Shown here: positions 8,735-64,000 of the stretch, one piece after another | Layout: each line of letters starts with the position of its first letter | Numbering within the stretch: position 1 is the stretch's first letter | Source: an uncultured Gammaproteobacteria bacterium | GTDB lineage: Bacteria; Patescibacteriota; Patescibacteriia; UBA1558; GWA2-36-10 | Assembly (NCBI GenBank): GCA_964633905.1 | Contig: CAZWIT010000001.1 | Location: 141,861 to 205,860, forward strand | Length of the DNA: 64,000 bases | Direction: 5' to 3' | Translations under genes and position numbers: made by a program | The notes under the pieces: model-generated | Databases searched by the model: none | Seen by the model: the letters and a program-made list of their open reading frames with translations, nothing else | Told to the model about the DNA's origin: nothing

Positions 8735-8878
8735 ATGATGGCGAGTAAGGCAACAAAAGAAAAAGATAGTCTGCCCACTTGGGCTATAGTAGTTATACTA
8801 GTTGGATTTATTTTGCTCTTTATTATTGGTGGCGATAATTTAGCCAATGTTTTGCGTAGATGGTTTAAATTTGCCTAA
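8735..8878 (+). CDS. small membrane protein (47 aa) with strong SD
   Basis: AAGGAGG 5 nt upstream of ATGATG; single TM helix; below the 60-aa cutoff of the ORF track. Confidence 0.4.
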   Translation: MMASKATKEKDSLPTWAIVVILVGFILLFIIGGDNLANVLRRWFKFA

Positions 8879-24432: not shown

Positions 24433-24477
24433 AATAAGTATCAGTAGTGTTCTTCCCTCTAAACGAAGGAGCTAGTC

Positions 24478-24684
24478 ATGTCGCGTTTGACTTATGTCCT
24501 GACCGAGCCCTTGTGCCTGGTTTGCCGGACGGCGGCTCTGACCATCTACACACGCGAGGCCTACGCCCAGGAGATGGAGCGGTGTAGCTCGCTTGAGCGT
24601 CGCCGTTTCGAAGAGAGCATGGTCGGCGGCACCATCATTGGCCTGCTGGCCATCGCGGTCCATACCATCGTCAAGACTTTCTAG
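24478..24684 (+). CDS. small protein (68 aa) with C-terminal TM helix, GC-rich (about 58%)
   Basis: AAGGAG SD 7 nt upstream of ATG; own promoter and terminator; composition strongly deviates from flanks. Confidence 0.4.
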   Translation: MSRLTYVLTEPLCLVCRTAALTIYTREAYAQEMERCSSLERRRFEESMVGGTIIGLLAIAVHTIVKTF

Positions 24685-24714
24685 TTGCCCACGTGGCAAC
24701 AGAAGTCGCAAGTA

Positions 24715-24763
24715 AGCCCCGGGTTTTTCCGCAAGGAGATCCTGGGGCTGATTTTTTTATTTT
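24715..24763 (+). terminator. intrinsic terminator
   Basis: agccccgggtttttccgcaaggagatcctggggct hairpin followed by TTTTTTTATTTT. Confidence 0.6.
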
Positions 24764-36824: not shown

Positions 36825-37166
36825 ATGAGTCATCTTTCCGATGACGATCTTAGGGACTTGCTTGGTATGAGTCCTAAACCTAAAAAGGAAAGGCTATTTG
36901 ACCTGGGGCGCTGCACTTGTGGCGGTAGGGTTAGTAGCCAGGGTATTTGTTATCGTTGTCAGACTGATCATAGCGCGGCTATGAAAATTCAGGCTCAAAA
37001 GTCTTGCAAACAGATCAAGTCACAACTGTCGGCAGAAGAATTTCGAGCTAAGCTAGCTTGTTTGCGTGGCACTAGCTGCCACAGCTGTTTTCATGGACAG
37101 CTTGATGAACATGGTAATTGCGATTTTTGTGAATATCGTTATACGGATTATCACAACATTATCTAG
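36825..37166 (+). CDS. Cys-rich small protein (113 aa, several CxxC pairs)
   Basis: AAGGAGGAGGG SD; TTGACA at 36748; terminator downstream; GC about 45%. Confidence 0.5.
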   Translation: MSHLSDDDLRDLLGMSPKPKKERLFDLGRCTCGGRVSSQGICYRCQTDHSAAMKIQAQKSCKQIKSQLSAEEFRAKLACLRGTSCHSCFHGQLDEHGNCDFCEYRYTDYHNII

Positions 37167-42419: not shown

Positions 42420-42650
42420 ATGTTCTCTCGTAGCCTAGAAGGCAAGACTGCTATTTTGTTAAGCGATATGACTACAATCAGTGGCGAAGTATTAGAAGAA
42501 GATTCACCTTTGATTTTAAGTGGTAATTATCAGATTTGTATTGATAAAAAAACTAGAAAAGCTTTTCTTCGTTTGGGCGCACGTCCCTTGTCAGCAACTC
42601 TAGATTCACAAGATATTTTGATTCATCAAAATGATTTGGAAATATTATAG
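42420..42650 (+). CDS. small hypothetical protein (76 aa)
   Basis: GGGGAGGAG SD 7 nt upstream of internal ATG; TTGACA at 42340; terminator follows. Confidence 0.45.
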   Translation: MFSRSLEGKTAILLSDMTTISGEVLEEDSPLILSGNYQICIDKKTRKAFLRLGARPLSATLDSQDILIHQNDLEIL

Positions 42651-50521: not shown

Positions 50522-50635
50522 ATGAGGCGTTTGCGATTGGTTTGGGAGTGGATCTGGGGACTTAGTTTATTATTGCTTATTGTTCTAGTTGTTTTGTCAG
50601 TTTATGTGCCTTGGTGGCAGATTTTTAAGCATTGA
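50522..50635 (+). CDS. small membrane peptide (37 aa)
   Basis: AAGGAGG 7 nt upstream of ATG 50522; single TM. Confidence 0.35.
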   Translation: MRRLRLVWEWIWGLSLLLLIVLVVLSVYVPWWQIFKH

Positions 50636-54199: not shown

Positions 54200-54550
54200 T
54201 CAGTACATTAAATCGGAGGGCTCCCTATGGGACCATGGAATAAAGGGCAGCCTTCTGCTCAATATGTCCTGGCTCTAATGAGCCCTCCTGCAAGCGCGGC
54301 CTAGAGAAGCATATCGCTTTTCGGCCGCAAGAGGCGACGCATCGTCGCCTGTGGCACTCTGCCACCGCTTCTTCGGTAAGCGAGAGACTGAAGCGTATAG
54401 CACCCCGTAGGAGAAGTTCCTGGTGAGGATTACCAGGACTGACCGCGTGCGGTGAGGTAGCCAACGATAAGGGCCGAAGGTGGGGACATGACTAAGGTTG
54501 AAGTAAGGACTAACACTTACTAGACTAAAAGTTTCTCCCCACTTTTTTAT
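54200..54550 (+). ncRNA. unclassified GC-rich structured RNA R1 (about 350 nt)
   Basis: At least 7 perfect hairpins (for example GGCGACGcatCGTCGCC, GTGGCActcTGCCAC, CCTGGTgaggattACCAGG); long-range GGAGGGCTC/GAGCCCTCC pairing; promoter plus terminal GGGGA...TCCCC-TTTTTT; GC far above flanks. Confidence 0.45.
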
Positions 54551-54575
54551 TTTGTTTAAAAATATGGTAAAATAT

Positions 54576-58654: not shown

Positions 58655-59085
58655 CAAAAAGAAAAAGCCTCACCAATGGTAAGGCTTTCCGGGCTGGCTT
58701 ATACCTGTGTGGGACCATGTTGTCATAGTCCACAAAAAATTACACAAGTTGGGGAGCCCGTTCTGCGCTAGCGCGTCTGTACCCCGTAGGACGCTCTAGT
58801 TCTGAGGTCTGACCTCAGAAGTGGTGGAGGTTGCCAGGATAAGTCCTGTGTAAGCTGCAGTTTGCAGGTAGCGTTCAACGCTTGTGGCGGAACGACCAGT
58901 CCCTACGAACCAGCGGCTGCTAGCCAAGTTAACTCGAGGCCTTCGAGTCACTTGAGATACCTTTGTTTTGGGTATCCGCAATGTCCAGGTTAGCGCTAAC
59001 CTGAATATCGCAACAAGCAGTTGTCCACAGAGCTTATTAAGCCCCAGCAACCCCCGTCTATTCGATGAACTTTTACGATTTTGTA
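58655..59085. ncRNA. unclassified GC-rich structured RNA R2 (about 400 nt), homologous to R1; strand unresolved
   Basis: Shares TGGGACCATG, ACCCCGTAGGA, GTGGTGGAGG/GGTGAGG and GCCA..GATAAG with R1 in plus orientation; the intervening hairpin covaries. Yet promoter TTGACA-N18-TAGAAT and terminator are on the minus strand. Confidence 0.4.
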
Positions 59086-60915: not shown

Positions 60916-62328
60916 ATGAATAGAATAAAAACAATCGAAACTGCAAATAAAGTTGGGGAAACAGTTTTACTCAAAGGTTGGGTAAATGTTCGTCGCAATA
61001 TGGGCAAGATCGCTTTTTTGGATTTACGTGATCGCTGGGGAATTGTGCAAGTGGTGGCAGTGCCAGCGGAACTTGATGAAGCTTCGCAAGCAATCTTAAA
61101 AGATATTAGGCCAGAATTTGTTTTAGCAATTACTGGATTGGTGCAAGCACGGGGAGCTAAACAAATTAATGTTGAAATGCCAACTGGTAAAGTAGAGATT
61201 TTAGCTAAACAAATCCAGATTTTAGCTACAGCTGAAACTCCACCATTTGAAATTGATAACGAAGAGCGACAAGCTAATGAAGAATTACGTTTAAAATATC
61301 GCTATTTAGATTTGCGCCATGAACGTATGACCAAAAATATAGTAATGCGTGATAAAGTAATGGCTTACTTAGGAAATTACCTTAGACAGCATGATTTTGT
61401 GTCAGTACAAACTCCAATATTATCCAAATCAACTCCTGAAGGAGCACGTGATTATTTAGTACCATCGCGCTTGCATCCAGGTAAATTTTTTGCTTTACCA
61501 CAAGCTCCACAACAATATAAACAGCTTTTAATGGTGGCTGGTATTGATCGTTATTTCCAAATTGCGCCTTGTTTTCGTGATGAAGATGCGCGTGCTGATC
61601 GAAGTCCGGGAGAATTTTATCAACTTGATATGGAAATGTCTTTTATTAAACAAGAAGATATTTTGGATTTAGTTGAGGATATGATGACTAAAATGGTACA
61701 AGAGCTTTTTCCGGAAAAGCATTTTACCCAAACTCCTTGGCCTCGTTTAAATTATGAAGAAGTGATGAAAAAATATAATTCTGATAAACCAGATTTACGT
61801 AAAGACAAAAATGATCCTAATGAACTTGCTTTTGCTTGGGTAATTAATTTTCCTTTATTTATGCCTCAAACTGACGAGGATAGATTTGTAGGGGCTGGTG
61901 ATACTTGGGGGCCAGCTCATAATATGTTTACTGCTCCTAAAGAAGAAGACATTGCTTTACTTGATACAGATCCAGGCAAAGTAAGATCTTATCAACACGA
62001 TATGGTTTTAAACGGTTTTGAAGTTGGCGGTGGGGCAGTGCGCATTCATGATATGAAGATTCAGGAAAAAGTTTGGGATTTGATTGGTTTTAAACCAGAA
62101 CAAAAAGAACAATTTAAGCATTATTTTGAAGCTTTTAAATATGGCGTACCGCCACACGGCGGAATTGCTCCTGGTTTAGATCGTTTACTAATGGTGCTGT
62201 TAAAAGAAAAAAATTTAAGAGAGGTAACAGCTTTTCCACTTACTTCTGATGGACGTGATCCAATGATGGAGTCTCCTTCAGAAGTTTCTAAAGATCAATT
62301 AGCAGAATTAAAGATAAAAACTACATAA
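60916..62328 (+). CDS. aspS: aspartyl-tRNA synthetase, short form lacking the bacterial GAD insertion
   Basis: 470 aa; QIAPCFRDEDARADRSPGEFYQLDME motif 2, GGGAVRIHD, GIAPGLDRLLM motif 3. Confidence 0.85.
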   Translation: MNRIKTIETANKVGETVLLKGWVNVRRNMGKIAFLDLRDRWGIVQVVAVPAELDEASQAILKDIRPEFVLAITGLVQARGAKQINVEMPTGKVEILAKQIQILATAETPPFEIDNEERQANEELRLKYRYLDLRHERMTKNIVMRDKVMAYLGNYLRQHDFVSVQTPILSKSTPEGARDYLVPSRLHPGKFFALPQAPQQYKQLLMVAGIDRYFQIAPCFRDEDARADRSPGEFYQLDMEMSFIKQEDILDLVEDMMTKMVQELFPEKHFTQTPWPRLNYEEVMKKYNSDKPDLRKDKNDPNELAFAWVINFPLFMPQTDEDRFVGAGDTWGPAHNMFTAPKEEDIALLDTDPGKVRSYQHDMVLNGFEVGGGAVRIHDMKIQEKVWDLIGFKPEQKEQFKHYFEAFKYGVPPHGGIAPGLDRLLMVLLKEKNLREVTAFPLTSDGRDPMMESPSEVSKDQLAELKIKTT

Positions 62329-62339
62329 TTTTTCACTGT

Positions 62340-62475
62340 ACTTACATATATTGGCATCGTGCCTGACTTGTTTTGTTGGTGTCTAACGGGCTCATAACCC
62401 TTGACCCTCCAAGGATGTGGCAAGCAGGCCGATGGAGCCCCATGCATGGCACATGGGGCTTCTTTATTTCATATA
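62340..62475 (+). other. GC-rich hairpin cluster R3 downstream of aspS (GGGCTC...GAGCCC long-range pair plus terminator-like gagccccatgcatggcacatggggcttc-TTTATTT)
   Basis: Direct reading. Confidence 0.3.
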
Positions 62476-62504
62476 TTGACATAATAGTGTATTTCTGATA
62501 TAAA
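62476..62504 (+). promoter_or_regulatory. consensus promoter TTGACA-N17-TATAAA
   Basis: TTGACA 62476-62481, TATAAA 62499-62504; leader contains perfect hairpin aacaacaaacaTGCtgtttgttgtt. Confidence 0.5.
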
Positions 62505-62621
62505 AATATATTGTTCTTCACAATTTTTTACCAACAACAAACATGCTGTTTGTTGTTAAACCTGGACAAGTTGAGAAAGGGTGGTGTTCTCGTGTTGTTT
62601 GAAGAAAACAAAAGGTTTGCA

Positions 62622-62984
62622 ATGTCCGACTTTATTGTGGTGCTTGTGATTATTGGTATTTTGGCAGCTATTGCTATTCCGCATCAAATTGCTAAACAAA
62701 ATCGTGAAAAAGTAGAATATAATATTAATTATTTGCAGATCAAGATAAACGATTATTATCGGGATAAGGGAATGTATCCGTATTCTGTTATTGAAATGGT
62801 TAGGTATGGTTATTTGGATAAAAAAGGTTTTGAAAACCCATATAGTAATACTTGGCAGCAGCCAATCGATGGCCAAGCTGTAAGTATTGGCCAAATTGGT
62901 TATGAATTTCTTGATAGCAATGATATCAAATATCGTATTACGACTCGTATTGGTAATGACTTGATTACTAGGATTGGTAAATAA
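62622..62984 (+). CDS. type IV pilin-like (pseudopilin-like) protein with atypical prepilin leader
   Basis: N-terminal helix FIVVLVIIGILAAIAIP matches pilin alpha1-N; the Gly(-1) is replaced (KRFAMSD versus canonical KGFTLIE); an alternative GTG start at 62592 is possible. Confidence 0.5.
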   Translation: MSDFIVVLVIIGILAAIAIPHQIAKQNREKVEYNINYLQIKINDYYRDKGMYPYSVIEMVRYGYLDKKGFENPYSNTWQQPIDGQAVSIGQIGYEFLDSNDIKYRITTRIGNDLITRIGK

Positions 62985-63056
62985 ATTTTAATGACTCGTC
63001 GAAAAGCCCAATGGGGTAATGGCGGGTCATTTTTTTTGACAGGTTTTTATATAGTA

Positions 63057-63085
63057 TTGACAGTTTTATTATTTTAGTTTATAAT
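63057..63085 (+). promoter_or_regulatory. perfect consensus promoter TTGACA-N17-TATAAT
   Basis: TTGACA 63057-63062, TATAAT 63080-63085. Confidence 0.55.
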
Positions 63086-63091
63086 AGCAAT

Positions 63092-63309
63092 TAATATTTG
63101 TTCTATAAGCTTGTCCCTTTGGCAGGTAGAATTGGACCTCCACCTGTCTAGGGGCGAGGCTGACTGCGGGCATTCGTAACATTATGCTCAAGGTCAGCTG
63201 AAGGCCGTACGCAAGAGAATAGGGTTGTGGCTCTCTCCTCCCAACCCAATCTCCGCACCAAAGCTTACGGTTCTTCGGGAGCTCTCGCCAAGAGAGCTCT
63301 TTTTATTTG
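63092..63309 (+). ncRNA. candidate small RNA R4 (about 215 nt), GC-rich, 5'/3' ends pair (rod-like), intrinsic terminator
   Basis: CTTTGG...AGAATTGG pairs with CCAATCT...CCAAAG; internal GCTGAC...GTCAGC hairpin; terminator gagctctcgccaagagagctc-TTTTTATTT. Confidence 0.4.
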
Positions 63310-63354
63310 GAAAAAAATTACTAAAATGCTATAATAGCAGTAGCTTTTTTGTTT

Positions 63355-64000
63355 ATGCAACATATTTCTTTAGAAAAATTTGAGGGTCCTTTGGACTTAT
63401 TATTGCAGTTAATAGAAAAAGATAAACTCAATATTACCGAGATATCTTTAGCTAAAATTACTGATCAATATTTAGACTATATTCATGACAAAGTTATTGC
63501 TTCTGAAGAAATGGCTGACTTTTTATTGATTGCTGCCAAGCTTATCTATTTAAAATCAAAATATCTTTTACCTAATGTAGTTGTCAACGAAGAAGAAGAT
63601 GGTTTATCATTGGCTAAGCAATTAAAGATTTATCGACAATATTATGAGGCTAGTAAGTTGATTAATAAAATGTGGTTAGATAAAAGTCGTTTAGCTTACC
63701 AACGTAATGTAGATTTAAAAGCTTACTTAGAGTTTGGTTTTTTACCGCCTAAAAATCTTAAATTAGAGCACTTGGGCGTTTATTTTCAGGCAGTCTTAGC
63801 TAGGATAGAAACTATTGTTAATCTACCCAAAGTGGTCATGGCTCGAGCTATTTCCATTGGTGAAAAAATTAAGCAAATTAAAGATTTAATTAATCAAAAA
63901 CAAGAACTGCTTTTTAGTCATTTACGTTCATCAAATAATAAAACGGAAGTAATTGTAAATTTTTTAGCTATTCTAGAATTAGTAAAACAAAAAGAAATTA
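63355..64000 (+). CDS. scpA: segregation and condensation protein A (partial, continues past window end)
   Basis: N-terminus FEGPLDLLLQLIEKDKLNITEISLAKITDQYL is the ScpA signature; TTGGAA-N17-TATAAT upstream. Confidence 0.75.
   Translation, partial: MQHISLEKFEGPLDLLLQLIEKDKLNITEISLAKITDQYLDYIHDKVIASEEMADFLLIAAKLIYLKSKYLLPNVVVNEEEDGLSLAKQLKIYRQYYEASKLINKMWLDKSRLAYQRNVDLKAYLEFGFLPPKNLKLEHLGVYFQAVLARIETIVNLPKVVMARAISIGEKIKQIKDLINQKQELLFSHLRSSNNKTEVIVNFLAILELVKQKEI

Follow-up and report, generated by a model that had tools for sequence, protein, structure and literature searches.

The intergenic space between a pilin-like gene and scpA raises the question of whether it houses an RNA gene and, if so, what kind of RNA this is and what it might do. 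The original prediction had placed an RNA of roughly 215 nt here and had compared it loosely with 6S RNA and SRP RNA. We examined this element, called R4, together with the whole 64,000-nt stretch of DNA that contains it (the window). The closest relatives of the ScpA fragment were found in MAGs labelled Komeilibacteria, Parcubacteria or Patescibacteria, and the host of R4 is a Komeilibacteria-like member of Parcubacteria (Patescibacteria/CPR).

The transcription unit upstream of scpA

The features of the locus are listed here in their order along the forward strand; hairpins are those of the minimum free energy (MFE) structure.

63057-63085 (+): sigma-70-type promoter of R4, with TTGACA at 63057-63062, a 17-nt spacer and TATAAT at 63080-63085
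63092-63109 (+): predicted start at about 63092 (±2, placed from the -10 element) and single-stranded, A/U-rich 5' leader UAAUAUUUGUUCUAUAAG
63110-63158 (+): hairpin H1, with an outer 9-bp and an inner 7-bp stem; apical loop AGAAUUGGACCUCC at 63128-63141, with CCUCC at 63137-63141
63159-63198 (+): hairpin H2, with the outer stem GCUGACU/GGUCAGC, a 2x2 internal loop (GC/AA), the inner stem GGGCAU/AUGCUC and the loop UCGUAACAUU
63199-63277 (+): hairpin H3, a long interrupted stem (helices 4-6); apical loop UGGCUCUCUCCUCC at 63228-63241, with CCUCC at 63237-63241
63277-63308 (+): intrinsic terminator of R4, with a GC-rich stem of 9-10 bp (63277-63301), a 5-nt loop and then UUUUUAUUU
63307-63335 (+): scpA promoter, outside R4, with TTGGAA, 17 nt and TGcTATAAT (extended -10; 10 of 12 matches, with the TG)

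The perfect TTGACA-N17-TATAAT promoter that had been predicted was recovered with 12 of 12 matches, and it was the sole perfect site within 62200-64000 in a promoter scan. Its spacer/-10 stretch, TTTTAGTTTATAAT, is kept behind TTGACA at four loci from relatives (L002, L099, L103 and L104), and a fifth, L101, has TTTTAGTGTATATA. With the start placed approximately 7 nt past the -10 element, the RNA would be 215-217 nt long (63092-63308). The terminator scan likewise bore out the clean terminator, a 10-pair stem at 63277-63301 followed by a U-tract that reads TTTTTATTT, and an equivalent terminator closes every R4 homologue. The body is GC-rich as described, with 52-57% GC over 63100-63300 (~55% for the R4 body) versus 33.9% in the whole window. 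Inside the element we detected no ATG-initiated ORF, no Shine-Dalgarno (SD) sequence and no GGAGG, in agreement with the earlier reading, and R4 as a coding gene was ruled out on these grounds.

The predicted location was also confirmed. The L099 orthologue of the upstream, pilin-like gene contains an N_methyl domain, and the gene 3' of R4 encodes ScpA (PF02616). It starts at 63355, and R4 ends 47 nt ahead of it. This position, which is kept in many Parcubacteria, would suit a leader or attenuator that acts in cis on the scpA-scpB operon, with read-through controlled by the structure and terminator of R4. However, scpA has its own conserved extended -10 promoter: TTGRAAAAA...AAAATGNTATAAT precedes scpA in relatives with and without the sRNA, and at L003, L016 and L062 the same promoter is present and the RNA is absent. 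As scpA keeps its own promoter with or without the RNA, control by attenuation is very improbable. The terminator, moreover, is strong and constitutive-looking, we found no conserved anti-terminator pairing, and the RNA at L108 stands ahead of a gene other than scpA.

The separate scpA promoter also makes R4 its own transcription unit. R4 is thus a well-supported, predicted gene: it has a promoter and a terminator of its own and would yield a separate, structured, non-coding transcript of ~215 nt. This part of the original prediction was upheld by the structure of R4 and by homologues at the same locus. The extended -10 promoter of scpA (TTGGAAAAA...AAAATGCTATAAT) overlaps the U-tract of the sRNA terminator, and the scpA mRNA has an SD-less leader of ~13 nt; both arrangements recur across Parcubacteria.

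Fold of R4 and comparison with known RNA families

The forward strand of R4 folded with an MFE of -86.9 kcal/mol, compared with -63.6 ± 4.5 kcal/mol for dinucleotide shuffles (z = -5.2), and none of 200 shuffles was as good. The reverse strand gave z = -2.4. The MFE structure consists of the single-stranded 18-nt A/U-rich leader (unpaired probability 0.6-0.99), the tandem hairpins H1, H2 and H3, and the terminator. In the covariance-model alignment described below, the H1 helices (1 and 2) were 95-100% paired, with both partners changed in 5 pairs, and the H2 helix (3) was 97% paired with 2 double changes. The H2 layout of outer stem, internal loop and inner stem recurs in L099, L101, L103 and L104. 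The apical loop of H3 had unpaired probabilities mostly between 0.8 and 1.0.

The suggestion that the 5' and 3' ends of R4 pair with each other to form a rod did not survive folding. The end-to-end helix UAAGCUU/AAGCUUA had a pair probability of ~2e-5, enforcing it cost 6.4 kcal/mol, and two uncompensated changes disrupt it in L002, the closest relative. The apparent pairing derives from two copies of the palindrome AAGCUU. No 6S-type central bubble was seen either, and the MFE structure, the homologue folds and the compensatory changes all indicated three local hairpins plus the terminator.

We then compared R4 with known families. Across the whole window, cmscan with 4227 Rfam families at gathering thresholds returned two tRNAs and nothing at R4, and a tRNA/tmRNA scan of the window likewise gave just two tRNAs, both elsewhere. 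At E ≤ 10 on 62300-63400, matches were at chance level (rli52, RAGATH-17 and CncR1), and none lay in the sense orientation on the R4 body. Nothing relevant was found at E ≤ 1 on the loci of homologues and positional orthologues. The 6S (RF00013) and SRP (RF00169/RF01854) models, which the original prediction had proposed as checks, gave no match at the gathering score or at E ≤ 10, as was also true of all other SRP models and of RsaE (RF01820).

R4 resembles 6S RNA in its length (~185-215 nt in 6S RNA), strong sigma-70 promoter, high GC content and stable structure. Unlike 6S RNA, it does not match the model, lacks the closing stem, the central bubble and the rod with its terminal stem, and forms three local hairpins in which 12 compensatory pairs were found; we rejected this identity. 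The likeness to SRP RNA is limited to a loose resemblance of one stretch (AAGGTCAGC..GAAGG) to domain IV. Within it, GGUCAGC supplies the 3' strand of H2 and UGAAGGCCGUA the 5' strand of H3, so that the stretch spans the junction of two helices, which carry compensatory changes in relatives. The GGUCAGC..GAAGG stretch is not conserved in L103 and L104 and is therefore not SRP domain IV, and SRP RNA was rejected as well, given that neither model matched.

Other parts of the window contain further GC-rich or structured elements. At 54203-54560 (+), upstream of NuoF-like/FeFe-hydrogenase genes, there is an RNA-like GC-rich island of ~350 nt with a TTGACA...TATAGT promoter and a terminator (MFE -149.5 kcal/mol, z = -6.6; no Rfam match at E ≤ 1 and no tmRNA by ARAGORN). 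A second GC-rich island of ~400 nt, at 58655-59080 (-), lies upstream of asnS (MFE -172.9 kcal/mol, z = -6.5; no Rfam match at E ≤ 1). It has a terminator near 58660-58690, and TTGACA...TAGAAT near 59115-59087 resembles a promoter. These two islands are putative large structured RNAs outside Rfam. Directly past the aspS stop codon, a GC-rich (up to 60%) structured element at 62350-62465 (+) ends in a strong terminator (62434-62462) and includes a small hairpin with the loop ACCCUC(C) and CCTCC at 62406. It had no Rfam match; L002 has a conserved counterpart (E = 2e-26) and L099 a weakly conserved one. As it is without a convincing promoter of its own, it may be an RNA derived from the aspS 3'-UTR. 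The GC-richest island of the window (up to 67%), at 24447-24757 (+), looks foreign to the genome in composition. It has its own promoter and terminator and carries an SD-led ORF (24478-24684) of 68 aa with a hydrophobic C-terminus and no Pfam match.

Homologues at the scpA locus

ScpA proteins of a close cluster are 65-98% identical to that of the window, and all other ScpA are at most 63% identical. The cluster is made up as follows.

ScpA 95-98% identical to the window: P0002-P0004; locus L002 (95%)
ScpA 88% identical to the window: P0005; loci L099 and L100
ScpA 75% identical to the window: P0006; loci L101 and L102
ScpA 65-66% identical to the window: P0007 and P0008; loci L103 and L104

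The cassette of promoter, leader, H1-H2-H3 and terminator was found before the scpA promoter at L002, L099/L100, L101/L102, L103 and L104, that is, in all close-cluster members whose upstream DNA was available. In the collections searched, the homologue set comprised six distinct sequences from four to five lineages. The original prediction had made its case depend in part on conservation in relatives, and same-locus homologues were present in four further lineages. When folded independently, the other five sequences showed the same element order, with z values from -3.6 to -8.5; the L101 homologue bears additional 5' hairpins.

Compensatory changes were evaluated by covariance models. A first model (R1), built from the window and L002 over H1-H3, retrieved L099 at E = 1.7e-4 and did not retrieve L103 or L104. 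In the resulting alignment of the window, L002 and L099, 93.8% of cells paired, compared with 31-47% in slid controls, and 12 pairs were changed on both sides, values that none of 500 shuffles reached; because the alignment was fitted to the structure, these counts from three distinct full-length sequences are inflated. G-U pairs at several supported positions are compatible with the forward strand alone. Between L103 and L104, pairing in H1 and H2 was complete (100%), and the 3 double changes all fell in H2. This adds little, as only two sequences are involved and 68 of 500 shuffles did as well.

A second model (R2), from H1 and H2 of L103 and L104, found neither the window nor L099 at default filters. 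With the filters off, its best match in the window was at 63113-63199, in the expected register, at 7.6 bits (E = 0.053 in a 351-nt search). With no significant cross-model scores, the case for homology of the L103/L104 type with the window type is built on synteny, promoter, architecture and short shared motifs that flank the H2 internal loop (CUGC on its 5' side, CAAG on its 3' side). Searches by nhmmer with each RNA against all fetched loci found near relatives only, and MAFFT gave no structure-consistent alignment of all six RNAs, which precluded a single family-wide model. The predicted sRNA upstream of scpA is nevertheless a new, narrow, lineage-specific RNA family of Komeilibacteria-like Parcubacteria, as judged from sequence: its members share promoter, position, the leader-H1-H2-H3-terminator architecture and compensatory changes, although the link between the subtypes is not significant by covariance model.

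Outside the close cluster, P0009 and P0012 have no intergenic space upstream of scpA, and at L007, L011, L107 and L108 the RNA is either missing or replaced by a different and much shorter one. This narrow distribution is unlike that of an essential housekeeping RNA. It bears on the idea that R4 is a structural RNA serving as a protein scaffold, either a 6S-like regulator of RNA polymerase or another ribonucleoprotein, with loops that are protein contacts or incidental. The consensus-strength promoter, which suggests high, constitutive expression, would agree with such a role, as would a size near that of 6S RNA and a hairpin architecture, including the H2 internal loop with its CUGC and CAAG motifs, that is kept beyond the sequence divergence detectable by nhmmer. 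Given the distribution, the lack of any match to 6S or another Rfam family, and the lack of a closing stem and central bubble, we consider a scaffold distinctly unlikely.

The 5' leader showed another pattern of conservation. Its first 12 nt are identical in the window, L002 and L099, although the bodies have diverged greatly, and among close relatives it is better conserved than the loops. The leader (UAAUAUUUGUUC) might thus be a seed targeting A/U-rich, SD-less initiation regions; it is predicted to be unpaired, and the upstream regions of most genes are A/U-rich and SD-less. On the other hand, the similarity is merely loose in L101, L103 and L104, its conservation may reflect constraints on the promoter or the initial transcribed region, and the window's best complementary sites lie away from start codons. 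A leader seed is quite improbable in our judgement.

A second sRNA, which we call type A, is absent from the window and lies just upstream of the R4-type gene in several relatives (L099:1236-1345, L103:2550-2690 and L104:2620-2752). It also occurs at L009:3674-3690, L050:1288-1304 and L058:1757-1773. It forms one hairpin with covarying stems and a large C-rich loop of 18-21 nt (consensus CUCCCUCCAAAUCCCCC), followed by a terminator (z = -4.6 to -5.3). At L101 (902-1000), the sequence indicates that type A and the R4-type RNA are fused into one transcript.

CU-rich loops and the proposed function of R4

The apical loops of H1 and H3 in R4 are CU-rich and resemble the anti-SD sequence (GGACCUCC in H1 and CUCUCUCCUCC in H3). 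The CUCUCUCCUCC part of the H3 loop is identical in L099, and the loop remains CU-rich in L101 (CUCCUCCC), L103 (GCUCUCUCAC) and L104 (..GCCUCCCCCC). The H1 loop varies, with CCUCC replaced by CCUCG in L099 and by CCCUG in L104. Across the six RNAs, CCUCC occurs 9 times, in or beside apical loops, and GGAGG does not occur, which indicates that the motifs are not the stem partners of a purine strand. On the forward strand of the 64-kb window there are 7 CCTCC, 2 of them in R4 and 2 in other putative RNAs.

In Parcubacteria at a greater distance (ScpA 55-63% identical), this position is often occupied by a shorter, different and unalignable cassette of promoter, hairpin and terminator. At 13 of 17 loci from relatives, the GC-rich, RNA-like cassette before scpA has CCUCC on the sense strand (4 are without it), and the 17 cassettes together contain 20 CCTCC versus 4 GGAGG. 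A set of 13 RNAs, taken singly, contains 16 CCUCC, compared with 5.0 ± 2.1 expected from dinucleotide shuffles; this set was picked after the motif had been seen, so the fraction of 13 in 17 is the fairer figure. CCUCC lies in a predicted apical loop in six distant positional orthologues. On this evidence, R4 belongs to a broader, fast-evolving class of predicted sRNAs with anti-SD-like loops, anchored upstream of scpA.

Three positional orthologues are predicted sRNAs of ~110 nt with a single hairpin loop (L009:3826-3935, L053:75-190 and L058:1890-2012). In these, the loop GGUU(C/G)ACCUCCUUACC is invariant, while the enclosing stems are completely different, and the loop contains GGUUCACCUCCUUA, which is near the 16S rRNA 3' tail. 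The 3' end of E. coli 16S rRNA reads ...GGAUCACCUCCUUA, and the loop GGUU(C/G)ACCUCCUUA is identical to it at 12-13 of 14 positions. This identity exceeds that required to pair with AAGGAGG, and it raises the possibility of a decoy of the 16S 3' tail, whose loops would titrate a factor that recognises the tail (an assembly factor, maturation RNase, methyltransferase or ribotoxin) rather than mRNAs. Era is a known protein that reads GAUCACCUCC (Tu et al. 2011, as cited in PMC10582724). However, most CPR lack era, which weakens the idea of an Era decoy, and none of the genes linked to the locus is a candidate partner. The loops of R4 itself, UUGGACCUCCACC and CUCUCUCCUCC, are without the UCA and UUA flanks, which makes mimicry of the tail, attractive for loops of the L009 type, weak for R4, and we give this decoy a slim chance. 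The H2 loop (UCGUAACA) also seemed to resemble the conserved 3' region of 16S rRNA, but we discarded this likeness because the loop differs in L002.

We tentatively favour, at somewhat under even confidence, a trans-acting regulatory sRNA whose CU-rich loops pair with SD regions. The functional elements of R4 would be the exposed apical loops GGACCUCC (H1) and CUCUCUCCUCC (H3), which may base-pair with the GGAGG ribosome-binding regions of the minority of mRNAs that are SD-led, mostly from small or unannotated genes. Such pairing would occlude the ribosome-binding site and lower translation, mRNA stability or both, in the manner of the Gram-positive sRNAs with C-rich loops.

Known sRNAs offer parallels to this proposal. 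In the cia-dependent csRNAs of streptococci and in cyanobacterial Yfr1, a single-stranded anti-SD-like element (CCUCC/CUCCUC) pairs with ribosome-binding sites. These RNAs are 60-100 nt long and carry the motif between two stem-loops, whereas R4 is 215 nt long, carries it in apical loops and has no Rfam match. In RsaE/RoxS and the other UCCC-motif sRNAs of Firmicutes (RF01820), C-rich motifs act against SD regions (PMC6158497, PMC8216469). Like R4, these RNAs have their own promoter and terminator and more than one C-rich single-stranded loop motif complementary to the G-rich SD; R4 has at least two such motifs, with CCUCC in both the H1 and the H3 loop. Unlike them, R4 is about twice as long, forms three hairpins and shows no sequence or covariance-model similarity to them. 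Its motifs are CU-rich (CCUCC, CUCUCUCC) rather than CCCC/UCCC, and it resides in a CPR bacterium whose genes are mostly SD-less. As there was no Rfam match to RF01820, R4 is not a member of RsaE/RoxS and is merely a possible functional analogue.

Given CCUCC-type loops, R4 would regulate the few SD-led genes. We found an SD-like motif at 7 of 47 long ORFs of the window, and most ORFs start behind A/U-rich sequence, often a few bases past a TATAAT. Roughly 85% of the long ORFs are SD-less, with leaders that are strongly A/U-rich and in many cases very short. Strong AAGGAGG sites precede the ORFs at 8735, 24478, 24867, 25306, 26769(-), 36825, 42420, 50522 and 57930, several of which are small, and the seven strongly SD-led ORFs that were scanned had no Pfam match.

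Among SD-led ORFs, perfect 7-nt complements of both loops occur at ribosome-binding sites: GGAGGUC (for the H1 loop) in front of ORFs 8735-8878 and 50522-50635, and GGAGGAG (for the H3 loop) in front of ORFs 36825-37166 and 42420-42650. By our own estimate, GGAGGUC is expected ~2 times per 128 kb by chance, so these matches are not above chance and the four ORFs are candidate targets only. A duplex scan of the whole window with the loop sequences did not single out ribosome-binding sites.

An anti-SD motif was detected in ~48% of Parcubacterial 16S rRNAs (PMC9297842), and PMC13000453 describes a precedent in Bacteroidia for SD-blind ribosomes with few SD-led genes. R4 and its positional orthologues might even be trans-acting copies of the 16S anti-SD tail, a global SD sponge and not a gene-specific sRNA, a proposal that we regard as unlikely. 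If it were true, abundant CCUCC RNAs, some with the full GGUUCACCUCCUUA, would gate, titrate or substitute for SD recognition in a small regulon whose genes are SD-led, small and mostly orphans, in bacteria that are largely SD-less. If the mechanism is that of an ordinary base-pairing sRNA, R4 would be a useful new family and no surprise.

In a limited literature search, which included 6S RNA in CPR, we found no description of a regulatory RNA in Patescibacteria/CPR. Rfam-based annotation overlooks several strongly structured RNAs in these genomes. Translation initiation in CPR is unusual, and this locus offers a conserved sRNA family at a fixed address just before the scpA promoter. A small SD-dependent regulon, controlled by anti-SD-like RNAs, may be retained by CPR bacteria that have mostly dropped SD-led initiation.
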